Part shown: one piece after another, positions 11,437-37,016 of the stretch
Layout of the letters: each line of letters opens with the position of its first letter
How positions within the stretch are numbered: position 1 is the stretch's first letter
DNA from: Bacteroidota bacterium
GTDB taxonomy: Bacteria; Bacteroidota; Ignavibacteria; Kapaibacteriales; HRBIN21
Assembly (NCBI GenBank): GCA_030550275.1
Contig: JAUQPR010000003.1
Span: 69,571 to 133,570, forward strand
Direction of reading: 5' to 3'
DNA: 64,000 nt
The notes under the pieces: model-generated
Told to the model about the DNA's origin: nothing
Databases searched by the model: none
What the model saw: only the letters and a program-made list of their open reading frames with translations
Program-made: the position numbers and the translations under genes

Positions 11437-11461
11437 CGCCTCAGACCCTCAAACACACCCC

Positions 11462-12667: not shown

Positions 12668-12754
12668 GGTGCTTGCCTACGGCTGTGGGCACATTCCGGC
12701 GCGCTCAGACGTCCTTTCCCCACAAAAGTATGCACTTCCCCGTAGATAGCCACA

Positions 12755-13495: not shown

Positions 13496-13560
13496 AACGG
13501 CTCTTCGTCTGCCCTGCCGCCCGAACCACATGTCCCATCAAGCCGCGTCCACCTGTGCGG

Positions 13561-14523: not shown

Positions 14524-14525
14524 AG

Positions 14526-15620
14526 ATGACCCAGGTGCGGCTGTGCGGGTTGAGTAAACGCTTCCCACCCGACCGAGTCGCCCTGCACGAGGTGTGGCTA
14601 ACGGTGGAGCCCGGAGAGTTCCTCACCATCGTCGGCGCTTCCGGCAGTGGCAAGAGCACCTTGCTGCGCCTCATTGCTGGCTTGGAATTCCCCAGCAGCG
14701 GCGAGATCTACTTCAACACTGAGCGCGTCACCGAGCTACCGCCGCAGCAGCGCGACGTGGGCATGGTCTTCCAGAACTACGCTCTCTACCCGCATCTGAC
14801 GGTGTTCGAGAACCTCGCCTTCCCGCTGCGCATCCGCCGATGGCGACGCCATGCAATCGCCGAACGCGTCCGCCAAATCGCAGCACTGCTGGGGCTGGAG
14901 GCGGTGTTGGACCGCTATCCTCGGGAGCTCTCTGGAGGGCAGCGTCAGCGTGTTGCCCTGGGGCGCGCGCTGGTGCGCTCCCCCCGCGTCTTCCTCTTCG
15001 ATGAGCCGCTCTCCAATGTGGATGCCCCCCTGCGCGCACAGATGCGCGCGGATTTGCTCTCCCTTCAACGCCAGCTCGGCATTACCGCGCTCTACGTCAC
15101 CCATGACCAGCTCGAAGCGCTCTCGCTGGGCACCCGTGTCGCAGTCCTCTCCGAAGGGCGCCTGCTCCAGGTTGCCCCACCGGAGGAGCTCTACTACTTC
15201 CCCAACAGCCTCACCGTTGCCCGCTTCATTGGTTCCCCGCCGATGAACCTTCTCTCCGGCGTCGTGCAGCAAGGACAGCTCCTGCTGCGCGGTGGGGAAG
15301 CAGCGGTACCCTTGCCGCTTCCGCTGCCGGAGGGCTCGCAGTGGACCTTGGGCATCCGCGCAGAGCTGCTCACCCTGGGGAACACACCGGAGAGCGTTCC
15401 AATAGGCAACGCCATCGTCAAGAGCGTTGAGTACGCTGGGCACGAGACGCTCGTCGCCCTTGAGCATCCGGCTGCGGAGGGAAGCCTCTTCGTACGGCTC
15501 TCGCCCCCGCTGCGCCCTCCATCGTACGGGGAGACTGTCGCGCTGGCGTTGCGCCCGGGTCCGCTCTGTCTGTTCGACCCAGGCAGTGGGCAGCGCCGCT
15601 ACCCTATAGACGCACGGTGA
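14526..15620 (+). CDS. ABC transporter ATP-binding protein, MalK/UgpC/MsiK type (no permease or binding-protein genes adjacent)
   Basis: Walker A GASGSGKST, Q-loop, signature LSGGQRQRVALGRAL, Walker B VFLFDEPLSNVD, and a C-terminal TOBE-like regulatory domain. Confidence 0.8.
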   Translation: MTQVRLCGLSKRFPPDRVALHEVWLTVEPGEFLTIVGASGSGKSTLLRLIAGLEFPSSGEIYFNTERVTELPPQQRDVGMVFQNYALYPHLTVFENLAFPLRIRRWRRHAIAERVRQIAALLGLEAVLDRYPRELSGGQRQRVALGRALVRSPRVFLFDEPLSNVDAPLRAQMRADLLSLQRQLGITALYVTHDQLEALSLGTRVAVLSEGRLLQVAPPEELYYFPNSLTVARFIGSPPMNLLSGVVQQGQLLLRGGEAAVPLPLPLPEGSQWTLGIRAELLTLGNTPESVPIGNAIVKSVEYAGHETLVALEHPAAEGSLFVRLSPPLRPPSYGETVALALRPGPLCLFDPGSGQRRYPIDAR

Positions 15621-18147
15621 ATCCAACGGTCGGCAAAATCGGCAGCATGCGAATGGGGCGGCTCTCGATCGCCAGCGTCTGTGGGTCCACGCGGTACTGG
15701 ATCGCCAGCACGTTCGCGCGGTTGTACACGTTGGCAATATCCAGGTACAGGCTCCACTCCTTCCCCAGCCAATCGGCATACGCCGTCAGCCGGAGGTCCA
15801 GGCGGTGATAATCCGGCAGCCGCGCGCGGTTGAGATTGTCCAATCCGCCGCGATCGGCTTGGAAGACCACCCCACGCCAATCCGTGTCAATGCGAGCAAC
15901 GGGAGCCCCTGTGGAATCGCGCTCCACAACGATTCTGGGCTTGACGCCAACGGGAGCAGTCCAGGGGAAGCCGGTCCCGTAGGTCCAGGTCGCGTTGAGC
16001 TCCAACCAGGAGTTGATGCGCCACCCGGCAACGAAGTTGAAGACGTGGCGGCGGTCGTAGTTGAAGGGATAGCGAACCCCGTCCTGCTGCCGATACGCCC
16101 AAGAGAGGGCATAGGAGATCCAGCCGTACAGGGGGCTACCTTCGCGGTAGAACTTCTGCAGCAGCAGCTCGATTCCGTACGCATCTCCGGTGGCACCGTT
16201 GACCGGGATGATGGTGAGCGAATCCCCGGGCACAGGGACCGGAGGAGTCCAGCTCTGGGGATTTCGCGGATCGGCTTCCGGGCTGCGCAACTGCGTCACC
16301 CAGACCGTCCCGGCAAGCCGCTCCTGTACGATGAGGTTCCAGAAGCGCTTGTAGTAGAGCTCCAGCCGAAGCTGCCATTCCGGTGACACCATTCGCTCCA
16401 CACCCGCCACCCAATGGGCTGCAGCCTCTGCCTGGAGCTGGCGAGCTCGCGGGTGCGTGAAGTCCAGAAAGGTCTGCCGGTCGAACAGCTTCTCATAGCC
16501 CGGTGACTGGTAGTAGATGCCCCATGCGCCGCGCACTGTGGTTACTTCGTCCAGCATGTACGAAAGTGCCATCCGCGGTGCAACGTACCCCCGGCGGATA
16601 AACCCGAAGTAGTCCCACCGCAGTCCGGGCAGCAGCGTGAACCGCCCCAATCGGATGCGGTCCTGCACGTAGAGCGCTGTTCGGAGCGCTCCGGTACCGA
16701 CGGCGTAGCTTTCGGGGAGCTTTGGGATGCGCGGATTGGTCTCGCGCAGCGCCACCAGACGCGGGTCGAGCTTGAGGGAAAAGCCGAGCTCGTTGTCGAT
16801 CCAATCCACTCCAGCGCCAAACTCGATCTGGTGTGCCGGCAGGCTCGTGAGCACATGCTCCCACAGCAACGAGTACTTACGGAACGCAAACTCTCCGCCG
16901 CCCTCGACCGAGAACAGCCGAGGCACCTCTATGCCCAACTGCCGCAGGGAATCCTGCAGGCGGCGGAAGTCCTCCAGTGTTGCATCGCGGCTGCCGAGCA
17001 CAAGCTCGCTGCCGCCCTCGCCCCCAAACTGGTTTCTGCCGTGGTTGTTATACGCCGAAAGCTGCAGCCGAGCACTCCAACTCGGGGCGATCACCCAATC
17101 CCACGTGAACCCGGCAAGCGTGTTGTACGCCTCATCGAACAGACTCACGCTATCGGGGCGCTGCCGCCGTGCTCCGGAGGTGAGCTCGGTATTGTCCCGA
17201 TTGAAGAGCCACAGGGTGCTGAGCCGATGGGTCGAGCTGGGCGCCACCGTGAGCTTGAGCTGGAGGTCCCCGAAATTCGGCAGCGCAACATCCCCATCAA
17301 CCAACCCGGCAGCGCGGACAATCGGACCAGCAATCAGATCGTAGTAGGTCCGCCGCGACGCCAGCAGGTATGAGCCCTGCCAGAACGGCAGCCGCCCCTC
17401 CACGACGACATTGGCATTCACAAGCGTTGCCGAAAGCATGCCGCTGAATGGGCGTTCGCGCTGCCCCTGGCGCACGGTAACGTCCAGCACAGCCGAGAGC
17501 CGATCCCCGTAGCGCGCGGGGAAGCCCCCCAGCGAGAGCTGTACATCCGCAAGCGTCTCCGGATTGTACATCGAGACCAGCCCGTAGAGCCGGTAGGGGT
17601 TGAACACCTCGAAGCCGTCAATGAGAATCAGGTTCTGGTCCGGTGTCGAGCCGCGAATGACCAACTGGGAGGAGAAATCGCTCGTGGCGGTGATTCCGGG
17701 CAGCGTCTGCAGAGCACGCAGGAGGTCCTCCACAGCGCCGGCGCGGTACTTGACCGTCCGAGGTTGTACGAAGACAACACTGGGGCGGGGATCCTCGCGC
17801 GACTGCACTGGCTGTGCCCCGAGGACCTGAATCTCCCGCAGCGAGATCGCCTGCGGGCTCAGCCGCACGGTGAGCCGCTCGACCGCACCCGGGGCAAGCG
17901 ACACCCGCAGCCGTTCGGGACGATACCCGACACCGCGCACCTCCAGCTCGTGCGTTCCCGCCGGAAGCTCAAGCCGAAACCGCCCCTGTGCATCGGCAAC
18001 CGCCCCACGGTTGAGCGTCCGAACCTGCACCGTTGCCCCAGGGATAGGGGAGCCGCTGCTGTCTTGGATTATCCCGACCACCTGCGCTGCTGGCTGTGCA
18101 AGCGCCGTCACCGCACATGCATACACTGCGAGGGCAATACGCCACAT
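15604..18147 (-). CDS. TonB-dependent outer-membrane receptor with N-terminal carboxypeptidase-regulatory-like domain
   Basis: ORF 15604..18354 trimmed to ATG 18147-18145 (MWRIALAVYACAVTALAQ signal). CarbopepD_reg-like VVGIIQDSSGSPIPGATVQV..., plug region (TLPGITATSDFSSQLVIRGSTPDQNLILIDG), C-terminal beta-barrel ending ...GFTVRL. Confidence 0.8.
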   Translation of the reverse strand: MWRIALAVYACAVTALAQPAAQVVGIIQDSSGSPIPGATVQVRTLNRGAVADAQGRFRLELPAGTHELEVRGVGYRPERLRVSLAPGAVERLTVRLSPQAISLREIQVLGAQPVQSREDPRPSVVFVQPRTVKYRAGAVEDLLRALQTLPGITATSDFSSQLVIRGSTPDQNLILIDGFEVFNPYRLYGLVSMYNPETLADVQLSLGGFPARYGDRLSAVLDVTVRQGQRERPFSGMLSATLVNANVVVEGRLPFWQGSYLLASRRTYYDLIAGPIVRAAGLVDGDVALPNFGDLQLKLTVAPSSTHRLSTLWLFNRDNTELTSGARRQRPDSVSLFDEAYNTLAGFTWDWVIAPSWSARLQLSAYNNHGRNQFGGEGGSELVLGSRDATLEDFRRLQDSLRQLGIEVPRLFSVEGGGEFAFRKYSLLWEHVLTSLPAHQIEFGAGVDWIDNELGFSLKLDPRLVALRETNPRIPKLPESYAVGTGALRTALYVQDRIRLGRFTLLPGLRWDYFGFIRRGYVAPRMALSYMLDEVTTVRGAWGIYYQSPGYEKLFDRQTFLDFTHPRARQLQAEAAAHWVAGVERMVSPEWQLRLELYYKRFWNLIVQERLAGTVWVTQLRSPEADPRNPQSWTPPVPVPGDSLTIIPVNGATGDAYGIELLLQKFYREGSPLYGWISYALSWAYRQQDGVRYPFNYDRRHVFNFVAGWRINSWLELNATWTYGTGFPWTAPVGVKPRIVVERDSTGAPVARIDTDWRGVVFQADRGGLDNLNRARLPDYHRLDLRLTAYADWLGKEWSLYLDIANVYNRANVLAIQYRVDPQTLAIESRPIRMLPILPTVGFTVRL

Positions 18148-24373: not shown

Positions 24374-25224
24374 CGCTCCAGCAGCTCATCGGCTCCAGCA
24401 CCCACCTGGTCGCCAAACGTGTGGTGAGCCAGTTGAGTCCGGAGCTGAGCCTCTTCTGGCGCAGCCTCATTGCCGCCCTCAGCAGCATGGCGTGGCTGCT
24501 GTACGAGAACCACCGAACCGCTCTGCTGCACCGGCTCCGCCTCCGTCAGGTGGTGCTGCTGCTTGTGCTGGGGCTGCTCGCCGTGCCGCTCAACCAGTGG
24601 TGCTTTCTGGCTGGGGTGCGGCTATCCACCCCTGCCAATGCCTCCCTGATGTACGCACTGACGCCGGTCTGGACCCTGCTGTTGAGCAGCGCACTGCACC
24701 AGGAGCGCCTGACTGCGCTGAAGCTCACCGGAGTGCTGCTGGCAGTAGGGGGTGTGGTGTTGGTGCTCTGGGAGGAAGCACCGTTCCCCAGCAGCTCCAC
24801 CACGCTCGGGAATTGGCTCCTGCTGCTGGCAAGCTGGGCATGGGCACTCTACACCGTTCTCAGCCAGCGTGTTGCCATGCAGTTGGGCGCTCTGAAGACC
24901 ACGGCGCTCAGTATGGTGCTGGGCTGGATGCTTTACCTCCCGCTGTGGGCTGCGCTGGGTGCGGAGTTAGGGCTGGAGCTGCTCTCCCCCTCACTGGTGC
25001 TGGAGCTGCTCTACATGGGCGTGGTGACATCGGGCATCGGCTACCTGCTATGGGTAGCAGTCCTGCAGCGGCTGGAAGCCAGCAAGGTTGCGGTCTTCGC
25101 TACACTCCAGCCGGTGCTCACCACTCTGGCTGCCATCCCGCTCTTCGGGTTTGTCCCCTCGTTCCCCTTCCTGCTGGGCGGAATGGCTATCCTTGCGGGG
25201 ATGCTTCTGACCCAACTGGGCTGA
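24316..25224 (+). CDS. EamA/DMT-family transporter (10 TMS)
   Basis: Two EamA-like halves of hydrophobic helices (LLVLGLLAVPLNQWCFLAGVRLSTPANASLMYALTPVWTLLLS ...). The start is uncertain (ATG 24316, or GTG 24352, which overlaps the GT4 stop less). Confidence 0.65.
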   Translation: MLGSSTLKTRGAVGDYLLLTLQQLIGSSTHLVAKRVVSQLSPELSLFWRSLIAALSSMAWLLYENHRTALLHRLRLRQVVLLLVLGLLAVPLNQWCFLAGVRLSTPANASLMYALTPVWTLLLSSALHQERLTALKLTGVLLAVGGVVLVLWEEAPFPSSSTTLGNWLLLLASWAWALYTVLSQRVAMQLGALKTTALSMVLGWMLYLPLWAALGAELGLELLSPSLVLELLYMGVVTSGIGYLLWVAVLQRLEASKVAVFATLQPVLTTLAAIPLFGFVPSFPFLLGGMAILAGMLLTQLG

Positions 25225-25291
25225 CCGCGCGCCCTCGGCTTCGATTGGGCGGCGTTCTGTATTTTGCGCCACTGACAATGCAAGCGCATCC

Positions 25292-28200
25292 ATGCTACGT
25301 CGGCTGGGGATTGCCATCGCCGCGGTTGTGAGCGCTACGGCAGCGGGAACTGGCTTCATTGAGAACCAAGGGCAGGTGCGCGACCGCTTCGGGCAGCTTC
25401 GCCCGGACATCCTCTTCGTTGCTGAACTGCCGGGGATGGAGCTCTTCGTCCACACCCGAGGCATCAGCTACGTGTTCACCGTGGTGGAGCTCTCCGAGGA
25501 GCTTCCCCCTGAACACCGCTGGCGCCGCCTCAGCGCTCGCCGCTACCGACTCGACCTGGAGTGGCTCTCCGCAGAGCCCTTCTTCCGGGTGCGTGCATCG
25601 GGAGCGCATCCCATGCTGCGCCACTACTACCTGCCGGGACGCACGGCGTTGAACGTTGCCGCCTACCAGGAGGTACAGCTTGAGGAGCTCTACCCGGGCG
25701 TGACGCTTCGGCTGCGGCTGGGCAGCGAAGGGCTCAAGTACGACCTGCTGTGCCGCCGTGCCGAAGATCTCGCCCGCGTGCGCTTCCGCTACGTCGGCGC
25801 GCAGCAGCTCTCCCTGCAGCCCGATGGGAGCTTGCTGGTGCATACCCCGCTGGGCACGGTGCGCGAGCTTCCCCCGGTGGCATTCCAGCTCAATCGAACC
25901 CTTGCAGCCGCCTATCAGCTCCACGGCGATACTGTGAGCTTCCGCGCTGCCGAAGCGCTTCCCCACCTGCCGCTGGTCTTTGATCCCGGTGTGGCGTGGT
26001 CCACCTTCTATGGTGGAAGCCGGCTGGAGGACTTCACCGCCGTCGCCGCAGACGCTGCCGGGAATATCTACCTGGCGGGCTGGAGTGTGAGCACAGACTT
26101 CCCCGTGGTGAACGCCTTCCAACCCAATTTGCGCGACACCCTGGCAACGGACATCGTCGTAGTCAAGCTCTCCGCAGCGGGCTCTCCAATCTGGGCAACC
26201 TATTACGGCGGCGATAGCAGCGATGCCGCCTACGGCATCGCCTGCGATGGCTCAGGGGAGGTGGTGGTTGTGGGCACCACCACGAGCCCGAACTTCCCCG
26301 TCCAAAACGCCTTCCAGAGCACGCTCTCGGGCTACTCCGATGCCGTCATCGTGCGCTTCAACAGCTCCGGGCAGCGCCTGTGGGCAACCTACTACGGCGG
26401 CAGCGGTGAGGAGACCGCCTACGGTGTGGCATTCCACCGCAGTGGGATCTTCGTCGGCGGCACCACGAGCAGCACGAACTTCCCCGTGCTCAACGCGCTC
26501 CAGAGCGTCCATGGAGGTGGCACCACAGATGGCTTCGTGCTGAAGTTCTCCGCTGCCGGGCAGCGCCTGTGGGCAACCTACTACGGCGGCAGCGGTGAGG
26601 AGGACCTCCGAGGAATCGCCGCTGACAGCCTCGGTGCCGTTCTCGCTGTTGGCATGACCACGAGCACGAACTTCCCCGTGCAGAACGCACTGCAACCGAC
26701 CTACGGTGGCGGACTCTCGGATGCCTTCGTGCTCAAGCTCTCCGGCTCTGGGCAGCGCCTGTGGGCAACCTACTACGGCGGCAATCGGCTGGACTTCGGC
26801 TACGGCGTCGCCACCGACGTGCGCAACATGGTCTATATCTGCGGCAGCTCCCTCAGCGACTCCATCCCTATGCGCTACGCCTTCCAGTCGCGCCGAGTTG
26901 CTGCACTGGAGGCATTCATCGCAGCGCTGGACACCGTCGGAGGTCTGCTCTGGGGCACCTTCTACGGCGGCAACGGTGTGGATGAAGCTCGCGGCATCGC
27001 CACCACGCCGCAGCGCCGCATCCTTGTGGTCGGCTCCACCAACAGCTCGAACTTCCCGCTCAACCAGCCGCTCCAGAACAGCCATGCCGGCAATGGGGAT
27101 GCCTTTGTGGCAGCCTTCAACTACGTGGGCGTCCAACTGTGGTCGAGCTACTACGGCGGCTCCAGCGCCGACATCTTCTACCGCGTCGCCGCCGATAGCG
27201 CAGGGAACTTCACCGCGGCGGGCAACTCCACAAGCTCGGACTTCCCCCTGCAGAACGCCTTCCAAAGCACGCTCCGCGGCGGGATGGATGGCGTTGCCGT
27301 GCGGTTCGAATGGGAGAGCATCCGCTGCTGGCTCCTGCGCCCCGGTCCGCTGTGCCCTGGCGACACCATCAGCATTGGATTCGAGGCACGGGGCTACTTC
27401 TTCCCGGACAACGTCTTCACCGCCGTGCTCTCAGATTCCACCGGCAGCTTCAACACCTCCACGCTCATTGGCTCCCTTGCCGGGCAGAGCAGCGGAGTCA
27501 TCCTCGGGCGCATTCCGGATACGGTCTCTCCGAGCAAGCGCTACCGGATTCGCGTCCTGGGTTCGCGCCCTGCAACCATCGGGAGCCCCAGCGATAGCTT
27601 CACGATTCTGCCCCGCCCAACGCCGCCGGTGATCACCGTGGAGCCGGATACTGTGCTCTGCCCCGGCGACAGCGCTATCCTGCGCATCGAACCGCAGGAG
27701 ATGGCAACCTACCGCTGGCTGCTCAACGGCAATCCCATCGGGAGTGACTCACCGCAACTTGTCGCCCGACAAGCCGGACGCTACAGCGTCCTTGTGCGCA
27801 CCCCGTGCGGGGAGGTGCGCTCCCAGCGCGATATTGTGCTCACCAGCGCCAATAGACCCGCCATCCCACGAATCGAGGTCCTGGGAGCACGCCGCTTCTG
27901 CCGAGGAGATTCCGCTATCCTCCGCACCGCCAACCAGGGTGGGGAGACCTCCTACGAATGGCTCCGCAACGGCGTCCTCATAGGGCAGAATGCGCCGGTC
28001 CTGACCGTCTCCCAAAGCGGCAGCTACACCGTGGTGGTGGCGAACCTCTGCGGTCGCGTTGCTTCGCCGGATACGGTACACATCCTCGTGGATGAACCGC
28101 TGGCGCCTCCGGAGTTGGTTGCCGAGGGTGCCACGCGCTTCTGCCAAGGCGATTCCGTCGTGCTCCGTACCCGCGCCGACAGCGCCATCATGGAATACCG

Positions 28201-29962
28201 CTGGTACCGCGATGGAACGCTCTTCCTGCGTAACGAGCGTGCCTGGCGCATCGCCGTGCGGCAATCGGGATGGTACAGCGTGGAGATCGTCAACACCTGC
28301 GGCGCTGTCCGCTCCGATAGCCTCCGCATCGAGGTCATCCCTCGACCGCTCCCACCGCGCATCACCGTCGAAGGGGGAACGGTGCTGTGCGCTGGCGATA
28401 GCACCCGACTGCGCACGGCAGAGCAACCGGGCGCAACGTACCAGTGGTACCGCGACGGTCGAGCCGTTGGACCCAATGCCCCTGTCTACGTCGTCCGGGA
28501 ATCGGGCACCTACACGGTCGAGGTCCGCACCGAATGCGGCGCTGTGCGCTCGCCCGATAGTGTTGTCATCCGCGTGTTGGATGCTCCACCAACTCCGCCC
28601 CTGTATGCCAGCGGCGCACCCCGACTGTGCGAGGGAGATAGCCTTGAGCTCTGGACAGAGCCCTTCACCGGTGCCCAGTACCAATGGACCCGCAACGGAG
28701 CTCCCGTGGGGGCTGATACGAACGTGCTCGTTGTGCGCCAAGCCGGCGTGTATCGAGTTCGCCTGCTGACGCCTTGTGGGGAAGCTGTCTCCGATTCCCT
28801 CGTCGTCGAGGTGCTGAGTCCACCCCCGGCGCCGGTAGTGCAGCCGCTGGGTCCACTCCGGCTGTGTGAAGGGGATTCGCTGCAATTGGTGCTCCGAGAG
28901 CGGCTCTCGGGCATCCGCTACACCTGGTATCGGGATAGCCTCCCACTGCCGTACACCGGGGATACGCTCACCGTCAGCACAGCTGCGACGTACTGGGTCC
29001 AAGCATCCAACGAATGCGGGGAAGCAGCCTCCGAGCGCCTCACCGTCGTCGTGCTCCCACGCCCGCCGAAGCCGGAGATCGCCCAGCGCGGCGATACCCT
29101 GGTCTCCAGCTCCCCTGTGGGGAACCAATGGCTGGATAGCACCGGAGCTCCCATTCCTGGGGCAACGGAGCAGTACTTCGTGCCACCCGGCAGTGGGCGC
29201 TACCGCGTGCGCGTGACCATTGATGGCTGCGCTTCGGAATCCGACCCGTACGACTACGTAGCGCGCGTCCAGCCGGTTGCAGCAGGGCTTCGGCTGCCAC
29301 AGGGACGGCGCTATACTCCGGGAGAGCGTATCGAGCTGGAGCTGCTGCTCCTGCCCGCCGGGCAAGCGCTCCCGCCGGGGAGACTGAGTGCACGCCTGCG
29401 TTACTGGGCGCGAGTTCTGGAGCCGCTCGCTCCGACGCCCTTGGGCAGCCTCCAGCAGGGTTGGCGAACTCTGCCGGTGGAGCTGCGAATTCCTGCACTC
29501 CCTGCCGGGACGGCTCAGCTCCGGCTCGCAACGGGGCTGCTCTTCCGTGTCCTCTTGGGCGATAGGGACTATACCCCGCTTCTGCTGGACAGCCTGCAGT
29601 TCCATGCCGAACGCACCTTCCCCTTCGTCGCCCTGCCTCCGGACACCCTGTGGGTGGAGATCTGCCGCGAGGGTGGAGAACGCCTCTTTGACCCAGAAAC
29701 GCCAGCGCTGCAGCTGCGTATCCTGCCGAATCCCGCTGCATCCGCGCCGACACTGCACTACGCTATCCCCGAGCCAGGGGACATCCGCATCCGCATGTGG
29801 AGCCTCTACGGCACGGAGGTAGCACGGCTCGTCGAGGGCTTCCACCAGCCTGGTCACTACGAGCTCCTCCTGGACACCGAGCGGCTCCCTGCGGGCGTGT
29901 ACGTGGTGGCGTTGCAAACCCCGACCCAAGAGGTGCGAACACTCCTGTACTACGTGCCATGA
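25292..29962 (+). CDS. Giant exported T9SS cargo protein: signal peptide, about 10 SBBP beta-propeller repeats, 9 tandem Ig-like (I-set-like) repeats, T9SS type-A C-terminal sorting domain
   Basis: Signal MLRRLGIAIAAVVSATAAG. The repeat YYGGSG..D.A.GIA.D..G...VVG.T.S.NFPVQNAFQ occurs about 10 times (aa 240-640). Nine ~80-aa repeats carry the Ig signature P.P.I...G...LC.GDS..L......YQW.R.G.......SG.Y.V.V.T.CG (aa 770-1290). The C-terminus LRILPNPAASAPTLHYA..IRIRMWSLYGTEVARL...LPAGVYVVALQTP is a Por_Secre_tail-type CTD. Confidence 0.85.
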   Translation: MLRRLGIAIAAVVSATAAGTGFIENQGQVRDRFGQLRPDILFVAELPGMELFVHTRGISYVFTVVELSEELPPEHRWRRLSARRYRLDLEWLSAEPFFRVRASGAHPMLRHYYLPGRTALNVAAYQEVQLEELYPGVTLRLRLGSEGLKYDLLCRRAEDLARVRFRYVGAQQLSLQPDGSLLVHTPLGTVRELPPVAFQLNRTLAAAYQLHGDTVSFRAAEALPHLPLVFDPGVAWSTFYGGSRLEDFTAVAADAAGNIYLAGWSVSTDFPVVNAFQPNLRDTLATDIVVVKLSAAGSPIWATYYGGDSSDAAYGIACDGSGEVVVVGTTTSPNFPVQNAFQSTLSGYSDAVIVRFNSSGQRLWATYYGGSGEETAYGVAFHRSGIFVGGTTSSTNFPVLNALQSVHGGGTTDGFVLKFSAAGQRLWATYYGGSGEEDLRGIAADSLGAVLAVGMTTSTNFPVQNALQPTYGGGLSDAFVLKLSGSGQRLWATYYGGNRLDFGYGVATDVRNMVYICGSSLSDSIPMRYAFQSRRVAALEAFIAALDTVGGLLWGTFYGGNGVDEARGIATTPQRRILVVGSTNSSNFPLNQPLQNSHAGNGDAFVAAFNYVGVQLWSSYYGGSSADIFYRVAADSAGNFTAAGNSTSSDFPLQNAFQSTLRGGMDGVAVRFEWESIRCWLLRPGPLCPGDTISIGFEARGYFFPDNVFTAVLSDSTGSFNTSTLIGSLAGQSSGVILGRIPDTVSPSKRYRIRVLGSRPATIGSPSDSFTILPRPTPPVITVEPDTVLCPGDSAILRIEPQEMATYRWLLNGNPIGSDSPQLVARQAGRYSVLVRTPCGEVRSQRDIVLTSANRPAIPRIEVLGARRFCRGDSAILRTANQGGETSYEWLRNGVLIGQNAPVLTVSQSGSYTVVVANLCGRVASPDTVHILVDEPLAPPELVAEGATRFCQGDSVVLRTRADSAIMEYRWYRDGTLFLRNERAWRIAVRQSGWYSVEIVNTCGAVRSDSLRIEVIPRPLPPRITVEGGTVLCAGDSTRLRTAEQPGATYQWYRDGRAVGPNAPVYVVRESGTYTVEVRTECGAVRSPDSVVIRVLDAPPTPPLYASGAPRLCEGDSLELWTEPFTGAQYQWTRNGAPVGADTNVLVVRQAGVYRVRLLTPCGEAVSDSLVVEVLSPPPAPVVQPLGPLRLCEGDSLQLVLRERLSGIRYTWYRDSLPLPYTGDTLTVSTAATYWVQASNECGEAASERLTVVVLPRPPKPEIAQRGDTLVSSSPVGNQWLDSTGAPIPGATEQYFVPPGSGRYRVRVTIDGCASESDPYDYVARVQPVAAGLRLPQGRRYTPGERIELELLLLPAGQALPPGRLSARLRYWARVLEPLAPTPLGSLQQGWRTLPVELRIPALPAGTAQLRLATGLLFRVLLGDRDYTPLLLDSLQFHAERTFPFVALPPDTLWVEICREGGERLFDPETPALQLRILPNPAASAPTLHYAIPEPGDIRIRMWSLYGTEVARLVEGFHQPGHYELLLDTERLPAGVYVVALQTPTQEVRTLLYYVP

Positions 29963-30741
29963 CCCACCTGGGACGGTTCATCGGACTGCTCTGCTGCGGC
30001 ATCTCCACAGCGCTGGCGCAGTATGCTGCCGGCGTGAGTATCGGCGCTGGGGTGAACCTGCATACGGCGGACTTCCGCACTGTATCGCCGGACATCCCCA
30101 ACTGCTGCCCTGGCTTTGAAGCCGGAAGCGGAGCGGCATGGAGCCTGGGTCTGACCTACGATGGGCTCCCGCTTGCTCCCCGCCTTCGGCTCCTGGGCGA
30201 GCTGAACTACCTCCGGCGGGATGCACGGCTGACCCAGCGCGAGGCAATTGTGTTCAGTTCCGACGATGGGCGCGCCGTTGCTGGCACAGTGCAGCACGAG
30301 CTTCAGACCCAGCTGGCATCGCTGGGGATAACACTGCTGCTGGGGTATTCGCCGCTTGGCTCCGTGCCGAGCTTGCAGCTGCGAGCCGGCATCCACACGG
30401 GGTGGACGGTGCTGGCAGCGTTCTCTCAGCAGGAGCTCCTCGTGGACCCACCGTACGGGCGCTTTTTGGACACGGGCACGCGCTCGCGCAACCACTACAG
30501 CGGCAAGCTTCCCAACGCCAGTTCTGTATCGGTCCTTGCCACCGTAGGAGCGCGCTACCTGCTTCCCATCAGCGACCTCTTCAGCCTCATGCCGACGGTA
30601 TCGGGATGGTTTGGGCTCACTCCCGTCGTCTCCGGCATTGCCTGGCGGGCTCATGCCCTGCACTTCAGCATGGGGATTGTTTACTCGCCGCTGCCGGAGG
30701 CACCCTCACCGCTCCGTCCCGGCTCGCCGGAACGCCCCTGA
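29959..30741 (+). CDS. Small outer-membrane beta-barrel protein (PorT / OMP_b-brl_2-like porin family)
   Basis: ATG at 29959 overlaps the upstream TGA (ATGA). Signal MTHLGRFIGLLCCGISTALAQ. 260 aa with alternating hydrophobic beta-strand pattern (VSIGAGVNLHTADF, LGLTYDGL, LGITLLLGYSP). Confidence 0.55.
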   Translation: MTHLGRFIGLLCCGISTALAQYAAGVSIGAGVNLHTADFRTVSPDIPNCCPGFEAGSGAAWSLGLTYDGLPLAPRLRLLGELNYLRRDARLTQREAIVFSSDDGRAVAGTVQHELQTQLASLGITLLLGYSPLGSVPSLQLRAGIHTGWTVLAAFSQQELLVDPPYGRFLDTGTRSRNHYSGKLPNASSVSVLATVGARYLLPISDLFSLMPTVSGWFGLTPVVSGIAWRAHALHFSMGIVYSPLPEAPSPLRPGSPERP

Positions 30742-30743
30742 GC

Positions 30744-32051
30744 ATGCGCGCAAGCGCTGCAGCGGCAATCGCCCTCTATGGGCTCACCCTCTTTGCCCAG
30801 GAGCCCCCGGTGCTCCTGCGCGATCTGCGCATCTACGGTGGCACGGACGAGACCGCTCCCCCAATCCTCCAGCTCCCCTCGGAGGAGGCGCCATTGGAGG
30901 CGCCGGGCTACCCGTTTGTAACCCTGGAGCTCGACGTTGAAAGCCCGCTTCCGCCGGCGCTTCTGGCTCGGTTGGTCCACTGCCGTCCAGACTGGCAGGA
31001 GAGCCAAAATGTCTTCCTCGCCTTCGGTCTTGCGGGCACAACGCTCTTCTCCTGGGAGAGCGCTCCTGCCCCTTCGAGCTTCTACACCTACCGAGGGCGG
31101 CTTCGACTGCCCAACGCACAGCTCTCGGTGCCGTATGCGGGCAATTGGAAGGTGCTCCTCTACGACGCCCGAGCCCCAACGACCCCATTGGCGGAAGCTC
31201 GCTTCTTCGCTGTCAAGCCCGCAGCGGAGTGCCGTGTAACGGTGTACGCGGACCTCTATACGGCATCCCCCGGCGTTAGCCCTGCTGCGGTGACTGTGGA
31301 AGCCTGGGTCCGCCCCCTTTCGGCTCGCCGTACCGACCGCCGCCTCCATACGGTGGTCTTCTACCGCAACCACCGCTGGTGCGAGCCGTACGTGGTCACC
31401 CAGGATGCCCGAATCGCCGACACGCGCCAGCTCTACAGCACGGGCTACCGCAGCAGTATCTCTGGGATGCTCCCGGCAGGGAAGCTCTTCCGGGTGGAGC
31501 AGCTCCCGGCGCAGAACGAGTACCGAGTGCTGGACCTGAGCAATCCCGCACAGTTCCCTCCCGGTGCTGCTCAGCCCATCCGGCTCCCCATGGCGGATCT
31601 GCGCCGCCGGGGCAACTTCTGGGAGTTCGCCGATGATGGTGCCCTCCGCTCCGCCCATCTTCCTCCGCATCTGCAGGACTACATTCCCGTGGAGTTCATC
31701 CTCGACCCCGAAGGCGCCCCACCCAGCGCGCAGGAGCTCTTCCTGGTGGGCTCCTTCAACCACTGGTGTCCTTCGGCACAGTGGCAGCTTGCCTGGGATG
31801 AGCAGGAGGGCGTCTACCGGCTCCGACAGTTGCTGCGGCGCGGGCGCCACAACTACCTCTACGCCACCGGTCGGCTCAACGCCGACACACGCCAGGTCGA
31901 AGCGCTCGATTTCACCGAATGGGAGGGCAACACGACCGCTGCGCGGCACACCTTCTTTGCCTTCGTGTACTACCTGGAGCCCGATTTCGGCGGCTACGAT
32001 GCCCTCATCGCCGTCGGAGCCGCCAGTATCTACGGTCCGCTCCGCCGCTAA
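30744..32051 (+). CDS. Exported protein of unknown function (435 aa); DUF5103-like T9SS-associated protein is a low-confidence possibility
   Basis: ATG at 30744, 3 bp after the upstream stop. Signal MRASAAAAIALYGLTLFAQ. No motif I can assign confidently. The context (cargo then beta-barrel then this gene) suggests a secretion link. Confidence 0.4.
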   Translation: MRASAAAAIALYGLTLFAQEPPVLLRDLRIYGGTDETAPPILQLPSEEAPLEAPGYPFVTLELDVESPLPPALLARLVHCRPDWQESQNVFLAFGLAGTTLFSWESAPAPSSFYTYRGRLRLPNAQLSVPYAGNWKVLLYDARAPTTPLAEARFFAVKPAAECRVTVYADLYTASPGVSPAAVTVEAWVRPLSARRTDRRLHTVVFYRNHRWCEPYVVTQDARIADTRQLYSTGYRSSISGMLPAGKLFRVEQLPAQNEYRVLDLSNPAQFPPGAAQPIRLPMADLRRRGNFWEFADDGALRSAHLPPHLQDYIPVEFILDPEGAPPSAQELFLVGSFNHWCPSAQWQLAWDEQEGVYRLRQLLRRGRHNYLYATGRLNADTRQVEALDFTEWEGNTTAARHTFFAFVYYLEPDFGGYDALIAVGAASIYGPLRR

Positions 32052-33358
32052 CGCCGCAGCGCCAGCAGCTCGACCAGCATCTGGTCGCTGACGCTCATCG
32101 TGCGTGCCGCTGCCTCAAACGCCCGCTGTGTGGCGATGAGGTCGCTGAACTCCTCGGTCAAATCCACATTCGACTCCTCCAGTGCCCCCCCGACGACCTG
32201 GACGCTGGGGAAGCTCTCGCCAGCCGTGCCGAAGATCGGCGCACCACTGCTGGGCGATAGCGCGAGCAGATGCTCCCCTTGCCGCAGCAGCCCCTCCGGA
32301 TTGGGAAACTTCGCCACCACGAGCTGCGCCAGGACCTCCGACCGCCCGTTACTGAAGCTCCCGATGAGCCTGCCCGCAGCATCAACGCTGATGCCGAGCA
32401 GCTCACCGGCGGTGTACCCATCCTGCTCAACTACCTGCACGGTGCTCTGCCCGGCAAAATGCGTCAACCCAGCAAGCGGATTGCTGGCTGAGCTGAGCTC
32501 CACCGTTACCGACTTCGTGGCATCGAAGAGCTCCGCGCCGCCGAGGGCTGCGTTGAGCTCGCTCCCTGCCAGGGCAATCGTGAGCGGGGAGCTGAGCGTC
32601 CCATCGGCGGCAAACTGCACCGGGCTTGCCCCCGCAGGCAAGGTCACCGCCGAACCGTCCAGAGTAACGCTCAGCTCGAATTCGTTCGGTGTTGCGGTCT
32701 TGCGGAACTCCAGGCGCAATACGTGCGTCCCTCCGCGCACGTCGTAGATGACCGCGCTAACGGCAACGGACTCCCCTTCTGCCAGGCTTGTGCTCAAATT
32801 CCCGCTGAGCCGGACCCGTTCGGTCTGGTGCGGTGGAGACTGCAGCCCCGGCGGGATCTGAATTGTGCCCAACTGGCGAGAGAGGACCGCTCTACCGGAA
32901 GCATCGCGCACAATGCGTCCCCCAGCGGTCTGCACTACGTACCCTTGCACGAACGCTCCCGAGGCGCTCTCCACCAGATTCCCCGCAGCATCCAACGCAA
33001 AGCTCCCTGCACGCGTGAAGTACATCTGCCCCTGTGCCCGCACCACGAAGAAGCCCTCGCCCTGTAGCGCCACATCCAGGGGGCGTCCCGTATACGTGAG
33101 CGTGCCCTGAGACAGATCCCGAACCACCGCGGCGAAGCGAACCCCGTTGCCGATTTGCAGCGGATTCGTCCCACCGACCTCTACGCCTGCAGCGCTGCCC
33201 AGCCCAAACCGCAGCGCCAATGCCTCGGCGAACAGCGCCCGCGACGCCTTGTAGCCAATCGTGTTGACGTTGGCGATGTTATCGGCAATGACCGCCAAGC
33301 GGCGCTGATGCGCCTGAAGCGACGACCGCGCCGAGTTCATCGAATGAAGCAACGCCAT
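32048..33358 (-). CDS. flgE: Flagellar hook protein FlgE
   Basis: N-terminus MALLHSMNSARSSLQAHQRRLAVIADNIANVNTIGYK (flagellar basal-body rod/hook N-terminal motif). C-terminal ...AFEAAARTMSVSDQMLVELLALRR. Start taken as ATG 33358-33356 (the ORF track starts at 33385). Confidence 0.85.
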   Translation of the reverse strand: MALLHSMNSARSSLQAHQRRLAVIADNIANVNTIGYKASRALFAEALALRFGLGSAAGVEVGGTNPLQIGNGVRFAAVVRDLSQGTLTYTGRPLDVALQGEGFFVVRAQGQMYFTRAGSFALDAAGNLVESASGAFVQGYVVQTAGGRIVRDASGRAVLSRQLGTIQIPPGLQSPPHQTERVRLSGNLSTSLAEGESVAVSAVIYDVRGGTHVLRLEFRKTATPNEFELSVTLDGSAVTLPAGASPVQFAADGTLSSPLTIALAGSELNAALGGAELFDATKSVTVELSSASNPLAGLTHFAGQSTVQVVEQDGYTAGELLGISVDAAGRLIGSFSNGRSEVLAQLVVAKFPNPEGLLRQGEHLLALSPSSGAPIFGTAGESFPSVQVVGGALEESNVDLTEEFSDLIATQRAFEAAARTMSVSDQMLVELLALRR

Positions 33359-33385
33359 TGTGCGTACCCGCAACTGGTGGAACAT

Positions 33386-34060
33386 TCATCGCCGACGAAC
33401 CTCCAGGACTGCCGAGAGCGGAACCTCAATTCCGCCAAGCCGGAGATAGGCGCCATCGGCAGCAAATCTGACCGCTTCCACAACACCTTCGACGAACGCG
33501 CCCAGCTCCTGTTCCCCACCCGTCTCCATCGTTGCCACGATCCGAATGCGGTACTCCCCTGCCGGGAGCCGATTCCCCGCCGCATCTGTGCCATCCCATT
33601 CAAACCACTGCTCTCCTGCCGATACCCCACGCCGCTCCACAGAGCGCAGCACCCGACCATCGGACGCCAGGACCTCCATCCGCACTGCTGCAGTGCCTTG
33701 GGGAACTTCGCAGCCCACCCGTACCGAACCCTGCACTCCCAGCAGGAGCTTTCCAGTCTCTGCCCGCACTGTACTGCCCAGCAACGCCGGTGCAGAAGCA
33801 CTCCCGATGCCCTCCATGAGCGCTGAGAGTTGCCCCACCTCCAGCTCCATCAACTGCCGCATGGAGAGGAGCTGCTCCAATTGCGAGAACACCGCCAGTT
33901 GGGCTGCCAGCTCCTGCCCGTCGTACGGGCGCACGGGGTTTTGGAGTCGGAGCTGCATGGTCAGCAGCTTCAGGAATGCATCCCTGCCCATCTCCGTGCG
34001 CTGGGGCTGGAGAGCCTTCGTCGAGAGCGATTGTGGTGCAATTGCATCAACCCTTGGCAT
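33386..34060 (-). CDS. flgD: Flagellar hook capping / assembly protein FlgD
   Basis: FlgD N-terminal motif DAFLKLLTMQLRLQNPVRPYDGQELAAQLAVFSQLEQ. C-terminal Ig-like (FLgD_ig) segment. Confidence 0.8.
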   Translation of the reverse strand: MPRVDAIAPQSLSTKALQPQRTEMGRDAFLKLLTMQLRLQNPVRPYDGQELAAQLAVFSQLEQLLSMRQLMELEVGQLSALMEGIGSASAPALLGSTVRAETGKLLLGVQGSVRVGCEVPQGTAAVRMEVLASDGRVLRSVERRGVSAGEQWFEWDGTDAAGNRLPAGEYRIRIVATMETGGEQELGAFVEGVVEAVRFAADGAYLRLGGIEVPLSAVLEVRRR

Positions 34061-35075
34061 GGACTGCTCCCGTGGAGGGTGTCACATCTTGGCTTGTCGC
34101 GGCAGCGGCGTTCCGATGCCACCGGAAGGAGGACACAAACCGATGGCGCTCCCGGTACTCCTGCGCATCGGGATTACCCTGAGGGAGAGATCCGCCGGAG
34201 AAGCCCATCTCCGAAGAGCGGACCCGCACCTCCAGCAGCTCCAACCGAAGTTGTCGTCCCGCAAGCATCCGCTCCAGCTCTGCGGTATTGCTGCCCAAGG
34301 TCCGCCCCAGCTCGCTGGATTCCGTCTCCGCTTGCACTCGGACGGAATCCTCCGCCACCGCCACCGATAAGGCGAGAGTGCCCCACTGGGGCAACTCTAC
34401 CCGCATGTGCGCAACCGCTGGGGGATGCTCGCTGCGCCCCGCTGCTGCGCTCCGCATGAGCTCCTGCAGAAAGAGCGTCCGGAGCTGCATCTCCAAAGCG
34501 TGCTGCCCGGTTACGCCTTGCAGTGTCGGTGGACTCCCTTGCTCCGAGCCTACCGCACCACTCGCCGTGCTCATGGCAGAGAATGCTCCCGCGTGCACTC
34601 CCTGGAGCCCATCGGCTCCGTTCGGTGGAGCAAATTCTCCGAACCTCGCCTGCGCTTCTCCTTGACCGCCTTCCGGCAAGAGCACCTCGGCAGCTGGATT
34701 CGCCTGGGAGGTCTCCGGACCGGATGCCTGAGGGTCCGCAGGCTGGGCAGCCCCCAAGGGGTTGTCCATGAGTGCCTGCCCGAGCCCACATTCGGGCTTG
34801 TGGAATGCCCTCGCCGTTTGGTGTGGAAACCCAAATCCAGCGTCTCCGTTGGGAACCGCCGTCGGTAGAGCAGAAGCCGTAGCGCCAGGAGCAGCGCCCT
34901 CCCCTCCGGGCAGGATGCGCGGGAGCATCTGCATTGCCTGCAGCAGTGCAGCAAACCCGTACGCGTTCTCTCCTACAGGCTCCCCCTGCTGCGACGGCGT
35001 CCTCGTCCCGCCGAACGGCTGGCTTCGTGGCAGCTCTCCACCCCAGCGGATGTGCATCCTGCACCGTTGGCTCAT
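34047..35075 (-). CDS. fliK: Flagellar hook-length control protein FliK-like
   Basis: Low-complexity A/G/P-rich N-terminal region. C-terminal Flg_hook-like domain (RVELPQWGTLALSVAVAEDSVRVQAETESSELGRTLGSNTAELERML). Overlaps the flgD start by 14 bp. Confidence 0.6.
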   Translation of the reverse strand: MSQRCRMHIRWGGELPRSQPFGGTRTPSQQGEPVGENAYGFAALLQAMQMLPRILPGGEGAAPGATASALPTAVPNGDAGFGFPHQTARAFHKPECGLGQALMDNPLGAAQPADPQASGPETSQANPAAEVLLPEGGQGEAQARFGEFAPPNGADGLQGVHAGAFSAMSTASGAVGSEQGSPPTLQGVTGQHALEMQLRTLFLQELMRSAAAGRSEHPPAVAHMRVELPQWGTLALSVAVAEDSVRVQAETESSELGRTLGSNTAELERMLAGRQLRLELLEVRVRSSEMGFSGGSLPQGNPDAQEYRERHRFVSSFRWHRNAAAATSQDVTPSTGAVHAKG

Positions 35076-35122
35076 CCTGCAGCCGAAGTTATCGGCAGCC
35101 TCCGGCGAAAACTAAAGCCCAA

Positions 35123-36149: not shown

Positions 36150-36808
36150 CGCTGGACCTTGGAGGTGCACATCCTCTCCCCGGCCCGGATGGGGATGGGA
36201 AGCCGATTCTCTGCCGGAACCACTGGGCAGGCGTACTCCTCGTTGTAAGCGCAGTAGGGATTGAAGGCGCGGTTGAAGTCCAGCACGTACTCCTCCTCCC
36301 CAGGCTCCTCCTGCAGCTCCAAATACCGCCCTCCGGCGTAGGTCTCTTGCCCAGTGGTAGCATCGGCGAAGGGAATAAACAGCAGCCCGCCCTCCTCCAG
36401 GGGCTTGTACACTGTCAACGACAGCACCGTATCCCCCAGGGGGAAGAGGAGGCGACCGTACCGCAGCATCCGATGCCGATATCCGGCACGTGTGGAAGCG
36501 AGCTCAACGGTATCCAGGCGCTGGAAGCGCTGCAGTGCCGCCGGGAGGACGTATTCCCTCGTCGGCGGGTAGTAGCACAGCCCCGCAAAGTGCCGCCGCT
36601 GTGGGAGCGGGATGGGGGAATCCGGCGCACTCCGAAACGCCTCATCCTTGAGCCGTCGTTCGGTCAGCACCTCCAGCGAATCCCACTCAGGCTCCAGCGA
36701 TTCCTCTCCGCTCCGGCTGTCATCGGCGCACCCAGGAGCTTCCCACAACAGCACGACCAAGAGGGCGCCAGGGCACAGCGTTTTCCACAGGCTTTTCCAC
36801 ATCCTCAC
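36146..36808 (-). CDS. DUF1684 domain lipoprotein
   Basis: Lipobox LLWEAPGCADD. C-terminal DUF1684 signature YVLDFNRAFNPYCAYNEEYACPVVPAENRLPIPIRAGE. The first 9 codons overlap two DnaA-box-like motifs, so the start may be M3 (36802). Confidence 0.65.
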   Translation of the reverse strand: MRMWKSLWKTLCPGALLVVLLWEAPGCADDSRSGEESLEPEWDSLEVLTERRLKDEAFRSAPDSPIPLPQRRHFAGLCYYPPTREYVLPAALQRFQRLDTVELASTRAGYRHRMLRYGRLLFPLGDTVLSLTVYKPLEEGGLLFIPFADATTGQETYAGGRYLELQEEPGEEEYVLDFNRAFNPYCAYNEEYACPVVPAENRLPIPIRAGERMCTSKVQR

Positions 36809-37016
36809 ACCAAGTTTTCCACACAGGTGTGGAAAGCGCGGAGGTTATCCACATCGCCCCCCTGCGCGCGTATTTTCCACAGGCGTATCCCCACGAATTC
36901 CACACAGCATTCGGGCAGAGCCTGGGCTGTCCAATTCATTGTCCAACATTGGGATAGGCGGAGCCGGCATCCGGTTTTCCACATTTCCACAGCTCCTCTC
37001 ATCGCCACATTCCACA
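36781..37016. promoter_or_regulatory. Array of ten DnaA-box-like 9-mers (TT[A/T]TCCACA); candidate oriC or DnaA-regulated promoter
   Basis: Perfect TTTTCCACA at 36781, 36793, 36815, 36873 and 36975. Perfect TTATCCACA at 36845. Variants: CTTTCCACA on the reverse strand at 36828-36836 (forming a 9-bp-arm inverted repeat 36816-36835 with the 36815 box), AATTCCACA at 36896, ATTTCCACA at 36983, CATTCCACA at 37008. Lower-GC stretch at 36925-36955. Confidence 0.6.

Follow-up and report, generated by a model that had tools for sequence, protein, structure and literature searches.

The 1556-residue protein encoded at 25292–29962 (+ strand) of the 64-kb window (the whole stretch of DNA analysed) carries a seven-bladed β-propeller as its head, Ig-like domains as the stalk and a type IX secretion (T9SS) tag at the C-terminus. 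As the preliminary description had proposed, it is very probably a T9SS cargo protein from a bacterium of the FCB group, because its C-terminal sorting domain (CTD) is homologous to type-A CTDs and is predicted to share their fold, a T9SS Plug homolog is encoded two genes downstream, and its orthologs belong to Kapabacteria, which taxonomy places in the FCB group. The reading we favour, with a probability of roughly two in three, is that the protein is exported by Sec, translocated by the T9SS and works extracellularly, most probably in binding or adhesion at the cell surface. It is also an ordinary protein, a further member of a very large uncharacterised family.

Gene and overall architecture

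The open reading frame is a single reading frame with an ATG start and a GC3 of 0.77, typical for genes of the window. It is also called as a gene in a JGI contig and has full-length orthologs at 54–57% identity in Kapabacteria/Kapaibacterium metagenome-assembled genomes (MAGs), so that the gene given in the preliminary description is real. A scan of 24900–32400 for promoters and terminators found no sites.

The modules and the two downstream genes are listed in Table 1. From the N-terminus, the order is putative signal peptide, DUF7948, seven SBBP blades, Ig_7 repeats, small Ig-like domain, cohesin-like domain and CTD. The rod behind the head is made up of nine β-sandwich modules (one post-propeller, six Ig_7, one small Ig-like and one cohesin-like). 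The domain list first drawn up from the sequence lacked DUF7948 (E 6e-37) and the three β-sandwiches that are not repeats, namely the post-propeller, small Ig-like and cohesin-like domains.

Table 1. Modules of the cargo protein and the genes that follow it (window coordinates)
Feature	Position	Strand	Basis
Putative Sec-type signal peptide, aa 1–20, MLRRLGIAIAAVVSATAAGT	25292..25351	+	n/h/c pattern judged by eye
DUF7948 domain, aa 22–232, all-β, N-terminal partner of the propeller	25355..25987	+	Pfam PF25778
Seven-bladed SBBP β-propeller, aa 233–673	25988..27310	+	Pfam SBBP PF06739, motifs, AF2
Post-propeller β-sandwich, aa 676–776; Cys679/Cys688; motif LSDSxGxF...YRIRV	27317..27619	+	AF2
Six tandem Ig_7-type Ig-like repeats, aa 777–1256, Cys pair each	27620..29059	+	Pfam, repeat HMM
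Small Ig-like domain, aa 1257–1325, GDTLxSS..GNQW..GC	29060..29266	+	AF2, ortholog conservation
Cohesin-like β-sandwich, aa 1326–1459	29267..29668	+	AF2, Foldseek
Linker with most of the conserved motif ICREGGxRLF	29669..29710	+	low confidence in AF2
T9SS type-A-like C-terminal sorting domain, aa 1474–1556, plus stop codon	29711..29962	+	HMMs, BLAST, AF2
260-aa outer-membrane β-barrel protein	29959..30741	+	gene call in JGI contig L001
T9SS Plug protein homolog, 435 aa	30744..32051	+	Pfam, NCBIfam

The N-terminal head

By inspection, the n-region of the putative signal peptide is basic and the h-region after it hydrophobic. The segment is modelled with pLDDT below 50 over residues 1–18, with a helix at about residues 4–15 (AF2), and is the least conserved segment among the orthologs (15% identity); the conserved DUF7948 motif F.EN.GQ begins at residue 22. 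The first 150 residues contain no Cys, and the putative signal peptide has no lipobox Cys.

DUF7948 (PF25778) is matched over profile positions 1–213 of 214 (E 5.6e-37, 128.3 bits, GA 27), N-terminal to SBBP, and is modelled as an all-β domain with pLDDT of about 70–90. Searched alone against PDB sequences, it returned only chance matches and had no solved relative detectable by sequence. DUF7948 keeps its place before the propeller in nearly all of the 120 best homologs, and the head (residues 22–680) is collinear in nearly all of them.

The propeller matches Pfam SBBP (PF06739) in seven stretches and scores 82.7 bits against a GA of 20.5, which upholds the module as first named, with a different blade count: instead of about ten repeats, there are seven WxTYYGG and seven [NDS][FI]P...[FL]Q blade motifs, and the AF2 model contains 28 strands (7 × 4) with pLDDT of about 96. 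The model, which the preliminary description had suggested as the way to tell one propeller from two, closes the seven blades into one and rules out two propellers. At the DNA level, a tandem repeat with a 192-bp period is present at 26364–26783 in the propeller region.

The only solved relatives of the propeller are structures of CylK (PDB 7RON/7FH6), a cyanobacterial Friedel-Crafts alkylating enzyme whose seven-bladed propeller belongs to the same sequence family and follows an N-terminal domain. CylK is matched over residues 254–646 (phmmer, E 4e-21) and gives the top Foldseek matches to the propeller model (E 4e-27). [quoted passage not shown] By analogy, the head could be a secreted enzyme with an active site between DUF7948 and propeller, for which the Ig stalk and CTD would provide surface delivery only. 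We regard this as unlikely, although it is the best of the alternatives: identity to CylK is only 21–22%, and DUF7948 has no match to CylK in sequence searches, so that half of the CylK active site is without a counterpart. [quoted passage not shown] Nor do the solved CylK chains (653–686 residues) match the Ig and CTD regions of the present protein.

The Ig-like stalk

The stalk begins with the post-propeller β-sandwich, whose strands (residues 676–772) are modelled with pLDDT of 67–89; no Pfam match covers this region, and the domain is common to 25 of 120 homologs.

It is followed by the Ig_7 array (PF19081; E 3.7e-24, 85.3 bits, GA 27.3), with repeats at residues 777–852, 857–933, 938–1017, 1021–1095, 1100–1175 and 1179–1256. 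Each copy scores 105–116 bits against a repeat HMM, and the next-best stretch, with an independent E-value of 0.007, is the weakly matching small Ig-like domain. The nine Ig repeats with nine Cys pairs counted earlier are therefore six repeats of about 80 residues with six Cys pairs, plus the three non-repeat β-sandwich domains alongside. Nor does their assignment to the I-set hold, since PF07679 has no match at E ≤ 1 in the Pfam scan and the D.G.Y.C F-strand motif is absent. The repeats instead follow the pattern C.G.S...Y.W...G.Y.V....C, also found in homologs, in which the second Cys is located eight residues past the Tyr (G.Y.V.....CG) rather than two. The Cys pair, earlier thought unusual for bacterial cargo, is characteristic of Ig_7 domains: of the 610 homologous repeats found in relatives that are not orthologs, 560 carry the first Cys and 376 carry both, and the T9SS substrate GhpA provides a precedent.

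Recent expansion of the array is ruled out, as the six copies are only 27–53% identical among themselves, no DNA-level repeat was found across the array, and the repeats are conserved position by position among orthologs.

The small Ig-like domain that follows the array (pLDDT 92–97) is the best-conserved module of the protein, with 77% mean identity among orthologs, and is found in 53 of 120 homologs.

Downstream genes and the comparison with GhpA

The barrel gene begins at the very end of the cargo gene, where start and stop codons share 4 bp (ATGA). It directly follows the cargo gene in all six orthologous loci; adjacency of a barrel gene is confined to nine of 84 loci. The 260-aa protein has no Pfam or NCBIfam match of its own; an exhaustive profile search returned 2109 relatives, mostly of about 700 residues, with an N-terminal OMP_b-brl_2 barrel and OmpA, and in a Chlorobiota MAG such a barrel–OmpA fusion adjoins an SBBP homolog. 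Since the ~700-aa relatives are barrel–OmpA proteins, the idea that the barrel and Plug genes are the halves of a split barrel–Plug gene is ruled out. A PorP/SprF-like identity is likewise unsupported, as the Pfam and NCBIfam scans gave no PorP/SprF match.

The second gene downstream encodes the Plug homolog, which scores 29.8 bits against Pfam T9SS_plug_1st (PF17116), above the GA of 23.9, and 68.9 bits (E 4e-19) against NCBIfam NF052315 T9SS_plug, below its equivalog cut-off of 100. It is 63–65% identical and syntenic across the six orthologous loci, and no terminator-like site lies between it and the cargo gene. Cargo gene, 260-aa barrel gene and Plug homolog form a conserved unit in Kapabacteria MAGs. 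Within the window, porK/L/M/N, sov/sprA, porV and porU were not found, and the remaining genes are unrelated.

The conserved order of cargo, barrel and Plug genes gives a hint on T9SS cargo handling outside Bacteroidia. It is conceivable, though we consider it doubtful, that the three act in Kapabacteria as one functional unit, with the barrel as a dedicated anchor or export partner for cargo with a type-A-like CTD. The counterparts of such a partner would be the PorP-like proteins that serve type-B cargo and, in the grappling hook, GhpB/C. The barrel here, by contrast, is of the OMP_b-brl_2 type, and its relatives elsewhere carry a fused OmpA peptidoglycan-binding domain.

GhpA of Aureispira (PDB 9FLP) is a T9SS substrate with an N-terminal functional head, 52 tandem Ig-like repeats with disulfides and a C-terminal sorting domain, followed by genes for an outer-membrane barrel and an OmpA-like protein (10.1101/2024.01.29.577165). 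It is the closest solved structure for the Ig repeats described here, which belong to the same sequence family as its own: the full-length query matches GhpA (9flp_A) with E 2e-134 in 14 stretches, the best of which (residues 886–1148) lies within the Ig repeats. The relation rests on this full-length search, because two repeats searched against the PDB found a phage tail protein instead of GhpA. The likeness extends to the locus, where a barrel gene is translationally coupled downstream of the cargo, as well as to the barrel–OmpA fusion of the Chlorobiota MAG, and by analogy the protein might be a protomer of a multimeric, grappling-hook-type surface appendage anchored by the downstream barrel. 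This is improbable: the present protein has only six repeats, GhpA 52; its head is a propeller where GhpA carries a hook module; the barrel is of the OMP_b-brl_2 type; and barrel adjacency is rare among the 84 loci. GhpA further differs in its length of 5898 residues, in its heptameric assembly and in the PorP- and PorE-like genes that follow it, in place of the barrel and Plug genes of the present locus.

The C-terminal cassette and sorting domain

The cohesin-like domain, which has no Pfam match, is modelled with nine strands (pLDDT 83–96), and its top Foldseek match is 2w1n, a cohesin+FN3 module (E 2.8e-6). It is common to 23 of 120 homologs, in each of which it is located directly upstream of the CTD, and about 50 of the 120 share the complete 300-aa C-terminal cassette in collinear order. 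The linker between the two domains has pLDDT below 50 at model residues 204–212. I1457, C1458 and R1459 of the motif ICREGGxRLF fall at the end of the cohesin-like part, and the C and R are nearly invariant in the homolog alignment; the motif could conceivably serve as a processing site.

The C-terminal 83 residues are modelled as a seven-strand β-sandwich with pLDDT of 92–97. By sequence, the homology of this domain to accepted type-A CTDs is clear: it reaches 60.7 bits with a custom HMM of the CTDs of 48 PF18962-positive homologs, is 34–40% identical to CTDs of PF18962-positive proteins by BLAST (E about 1e-12 against NCBI entries named "T9SS type A sorting domain-containing protein"), and its alignment keeps the PNP, G and G.Y motifs (ILPNPA, LYG and LPAGVYVV). 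This homology supports the type-A assignment of the preliminary description but not its epithet "textbook", because the domain falls below both curated cut-offs (PF18962, 16.9 bits, GA 27; TIGR04183, 17.3 bits, cut-off 23). The type-B model CHU_C gave no Pfam match to the CTD. In the clade of the present protein the domain ends in ...YVP, unlike the usual K/R-rich end. The curated models under-call cargo in this lineage, giving 17 bits where a family-specific profile gives 60.

The sub-threshold scores, the atypical end and the finding of a precomputed PF18962 match in none of the seven closest orthologs might be read as signs of a decayed or repurposed β-sandwich that the T9SS no longer uses, in a protein that is periplasmic or exported otherwise, but this is the least probable of the alternatives, given that all orthologs keep the domain and its motifs at the extreme C-terminus, that it scores well against real CTDs and its fold is predicted with high confidence, and that a T9SS Plug gene lies in the same gene cluster.

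Proposed export and function

In the preferred model, the signal peptide would carry the protein into the periplasm, where the T9SS translocon would recognise the CTD and pass the protein across the outer membrane; the CTD would then presumably be removed. In the mature protein DUF7948 would pack with the propeller to form the head, and the rod would keep the head away from the cell. We infer secretion itself, CTD cleavage, surface attachment and ligand binding, rather than catalysis, by the head.

"Surface adhesin or binding protein", as the preliminary description had it, is a reasonable reading, for which two precedents count. PMC3130794, with reference to Oliveira 2010, lists LipL53, a Leptospira SBBP lipoprotein, among extracellular-matrix-binding adhesins, and GhpA, whose Ig repeats are similar, serves as a surface adhesin (10.1101/2024.01.29.577165). 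The LipL53 family (NF047494) has SBBP propeller repeats in common with the present protein and, unlike it, lacks the Ig stalk and T9SS CTD; the match to this family, 78.2 bits, is below the equivalog cut-off of 400 and does not amount to membership.

Several points weigh on the other side: the CTD scores below threshold and has its ...YVP end, the window contains no T9SS core gene, the signal peptide was judged by eye, CylK, the only solved relative of the propeller, is an enzyme, and we know of no ligand for any DUF7948-SBBP head.

Family and distribution

The homolog search returned more than 5,200 matches, with more than 5,000 homologs of the same architecture; the family alignment was built on a set of 25 sequences. 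The same module order is found in uncharacterised SBBP or "T9SS type A sorting domain-containing" proteins of Bacteroidota, Ignavibacteria and Kapabacteria (for example P0003, P0043 and P0047). Relative to this family, in which the Ig repeats have a median of nine and reach 17, the present protein has six and the CTD of its clade is divergent; the nearest known sequences are only about 55% identical to it. A literature search returned nothing on SBBP together with the T9SS and only incidental mention of Kapabacteria together with the T9SS.

As one more member, from the poorly studied, thermophile-associated Kapabacteria lineage, of a DUF7948-SBBP-Ig_7 family of thousands, the protein matters little alone. 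The uncharacterised combination of DUF7948 and seven-bladed propeller is abundant and modelled with confidence, so that any ligand found for one such head would annotate thousands of proteins. In other lineages, the same head is joined to other surface or secretion anchors, namely CHU_C (type B), MYXO-CTERM, SLH and TIGR03437, which fits a generic extracellular display module.

Identity and family of the cargo gene

The cargo gene is a single open reading frame in the ORF scan of the window (25292..29962, + strand, ATG start, 1556 aa). The window DNA is 64% GC and long spurious ORFs are frequent, as in the 726-aa ORF opposite the cargo gene. That the cargo ORF is a real gene is supported by its codon-position GC (0.67/0.52/0.77), which is like that of other window genes, by the identical protein called on the JGI metagenome contig Ga0309760_1000011, by strong Pfam domains and by seven orthologs at 54–57% identity (five full-length, two N-terminally truncated). 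By a derived offset, Ga0309760_1000011 ends at window position 15627, and window positions 1–15626 lie beyond it; the assembly behind the window is thus longer than, or different from, this contig, the sole public one found with the identical protein. Bacterium HR21, Candidatus Kapabacteria/Kapaibacterium MAGs and one Chlorobiota MAG are the sources of the close orthologs, and since Kapaibacterium falls taxonomically within the FCB group (Bacteroidota/Chlorobiota group), the FCB-group placement given in the preliminary description is supported.

Of 8,000 candidates scored in a family search, 5,219 proteins passed E≤1e-5. Almost all of the 120 best homologs are collinear with the head (DUF7948 plus SBBP propeller, aa 22–680), and about 50 of them with the 300-aa C-terminal cassette of small Ig, cohesin-like and sorting domains. 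Proteins of other lineages combine the head with CHU_C, MYXO-CTERM, SLH or TIGR03437 ends, and an archaeal MAG also encodes the head; this variety is consistent with a generic module for display outside the cell. The cargo protein adds a member to an already known and very large group of T9SS cargo whose function is uncharacterised. Overall, what the preliminary description observed is confirmed in part, and its interpretation is supported in part.

Modules of the cargo protein (aa) and genes beside the cargo gene (window positions)
Feature	Position	Strand	Basis or remark
Sec-type signal peptide	aa 1–20		By inspection; AF2 pLDDT <50; least conserved segment
DUF7948 (PF25778)	aa 22–232		Pfam E 5.6e-37; all-beta in AF2 model
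Seven SBBP blades	aa 233–673		Motifs, Pfam, AF2
Beta-sandwich without Pfam family	aa 676–776		AF2
Six tandem Ig_7 repeats	aa 777–1256		Repeat HMM, 105–116 bits each
Small Ig-like domain	aa 1257–1325		Best-conserved module, 77% identity among orthologs
Cohesin-like beta-sandwich	aa 1326–1459		Foldseek best match 2w1n (cohesin+FN3 module), E 2.8e-6
Short low-confidence linker, conserved motif ICREGGxRLF	aa 1460–1473		AF2, alignment
C-terminal sorting domain (CTD)	aa 1474–1556		CTD-profile homology, AF2 fold
Histidine kinase, FemAB-like acetyltransferase, GT1 glycosyltransferase, EamA transporter	Upstream of cargo gene	Same as cargo	
260-aa outer-membrane beta-barrel gene	29959–30741	+	ATG overlaps cargo stop
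T9SS Plug homolog, 435 aa	30744–32051	+	2-bp gap after 260-aa gene

Head and propeller

[quoted passage not shown] The SBBP repeats, previously put at about ten, number seven by WxTYYGG motifs (n=7), by NFPxxNAxQ-like motifs (n=7), by Pfam stretches (7) and by the 28 strands (7 × 4) of the AF2 head model (mean pLDDT 86.9, ~96 in the propeller). These counts settle on one closed, seven-bladed propeller and rule out two. The only solved relatives of the propeller are structures of CylK, a cyanobacterial Friedel-Crafts alkylating enzyme (phmmer E 4e-21; Foldseek E 4e-27), whose C-terminal domain forms a propeller of seven blades (PMC8916777). A DNA-level tandem repeat lies within the propeller (26364–26783, +; period 192 bp, equal to one 64-aa blade; 2.2 copies, 78% identity), and the cargo gene carries no other outside it. 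Blades 3–5 are the youngest propeller copies.

The stalk

The nine Ig repeats of about 80 aa proposed earlier reduce to six sequence repeats, with the next-best stretch reaching just iE 0.007 in the repeat HMM. If the three non-repeat domains are counted, the stalk has nine beta-sandwich modules, which may explain the earlier figure. Nor is the I-set label supported: PF07679 gives no match at E≤1 and the D.G.Y.C motif is not present. Pfam ranks Ig_7 first (PF19081, E 3.7e-24), ahead of Ig_3 and Ig_2, and the second Cys lies 8 residues past the Tyr, in G.Y.V.....CG.

The Cys pair, described earlier as unusual for bacterial cargo, is not so: among homologous repeats from non-orthologous relatives the first Cys is present in 560/610 and both in 376/610, many of those counted as lacking the pair being envelopes truncated ahead of the second Cys. 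GhpA, the grappling-hook protein of Aureispira, is a solved T9SS substrate whose stem is built of 52 disulfide-containing Ig-like repeats (bioRxiv 10.1101/2024.01.29.577165); its match to the cargo protein has E 2e-134 and spans 14 stretches. That the six repeats are old is indicated by their pairwise identity of 27–53%, the absence of any DNA-level repeat in the Ig array and their position-by-position conservation across orthologs. A second AF2 model, of aa 1257–1556, has a mean pLDDT of 88.9.

The C-terminal sorting domain

Described beforehand as a textbook type-A domain, the CTD falls below both curated thresholds (PF18962, 16.9 bits, GA 27; TIGR04183, 17.3 bits, cut-off 23), and none of the seven closest orthologs has a precomputed PF18962 match; its homology to type-A CTDs stands. 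A custom HMM was made from the C-terminal 85 residues of 48 homologs that have PF18962 matches; it gives 60.7 bits for the query and 49–67 bits for all orthologs, with the PNP, G and G.Y.V motifs lining up. BLAST gives 34–40% identity to CTDs of proteins named by NCBI as ‘T9SS type A sorting domain-containing’. The fold in the AF2 model is a sandwich of seven strands (pLDDT 92–97), and a Pfam scan of the cargo protein gives no CHU_C (type B) signal. By profile and predicted fold, the CTD is judged to be truly related to type-A CTDs. Peculiar to the clade is its C-terminus, which in all orthologs reads ...YVP or ...YLP instead of closing with a basic residue.

Elsewhere in the window, 50618–52984 (−) encodes an M14 zinc carboxypeptidase of 788 aa that bears a signal peptide and an InhA-like MAM domain. 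Its C-terminal ~65 aa match the custom CTD profile weakly (19 bits) and keep the G.Y motif; it is possibly a second, still more divergent T9SS cargo.

The cargo-barrel-Plug unit

The least ordinary aspect of the locus is the conserved unit formed by the cargo, barrel and Plug genes. Six orthologous loci share their order, one of them interrupted by a DUF389 gene, and no terminator-like site was found in 24900–32400. The Plug homolog scores above threshold with PF17116 (29.8 bits, GA 23.9) and under the equivalog cut-off with NF052315 (E 4e-19); it shares 63–65% identity among orthologous loci, against ~55% for the cargo.

The 260-aa protein carries a signal peptide, and its CCPGF and PSPLxPG motifs are invariant; Pfam and NCBIfam scans give it no family match of its own. 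A word-indexed search picked up just 11 relatives, of which those with a name belong to Kapabacteria or Bacteroidetes MAGs. With an exhaustive profile search the number rose to 2,109, mostly ~700-aa OmpA family proteins with an N-terminal OMP_b-brl_2 barrel followed by OmpA domains; these relatives identify it as a stand-alone outer-membrane beta-barrel. In a locus from a Chlorobiota MAG, a 733-aa protein (1259–3460), of the length class of the barrel-OmpA relatives, matches the barrel profile in its N-terminal part (135.6 bits), and its gene lies 219 bp upstream of, and on the same strand as, that of a 1758-aa SBBP-family homolog (3679–8955), so that barrel-cargo adjacency is kept in another gene order. 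A weak barrel match also precedes the SBBP homolog in a Kapaibacterium MAG; the remaining 75 loci have no barrel neighbour. It seems quite unlikely that the Kapabacteria unit reflects a dedicated anchoring or export partnership. The T9SS core genes porK/L/M/N, sov, porV and porU were not found within the 64-kb window.

Proposed route and function

Alongside the observed architecture, CTD homology, Plug neighbour and family membership, the route judged most probable is one in which the cargo protein would be exported by the Sec route, CTD recognition would then lead to T9SS translocation, and a head-on-stalk binding protein would finally be displayed or released; secretion, CTD cleavage, anchoring and ligand binding are presumed steps of this scheme. 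Two precedents point by analogy to a role in adhesion: LipL53, a Leptospira SBBP lipoprotein counted among extracellular-matrix-binding adhesins (PMC3130794), and GhpA, an adhesin secreted by T9SS (10.1101/2024.01.29.577165). [quoted passage not shown]

Other features of the window

The Plug stop overlaps the convergent flgE by 4 bp. Genes of the flagellar hook (flgE, flgD, hook-length control; 32048–35100, −) adjoin T9SS-related genes, which suggests that the organism possesses a T9SS as well as flagella.

DnaA-box-like 9-mers are densely clustered on one strand at 36740–37010, between a DUF1684 gene and serS: five TTTTCCACA, one perfect TTATCCACA and more TTCCACA cores. The window has 14 DnaA-box-like matches at ≤1 mismatch (3.9 ± 1.7 expected), GC skew turns from negative to positive at ~37–38 kb, and the cluster is probably the chromosomal replication origin.

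A 1190-aa amidohydrolase ORF (569–4141, −) overlaps the metK ORF (3251–4888, +), whose SAM synthetase domains lie at aa 163–527; both starts are probably over-extended.
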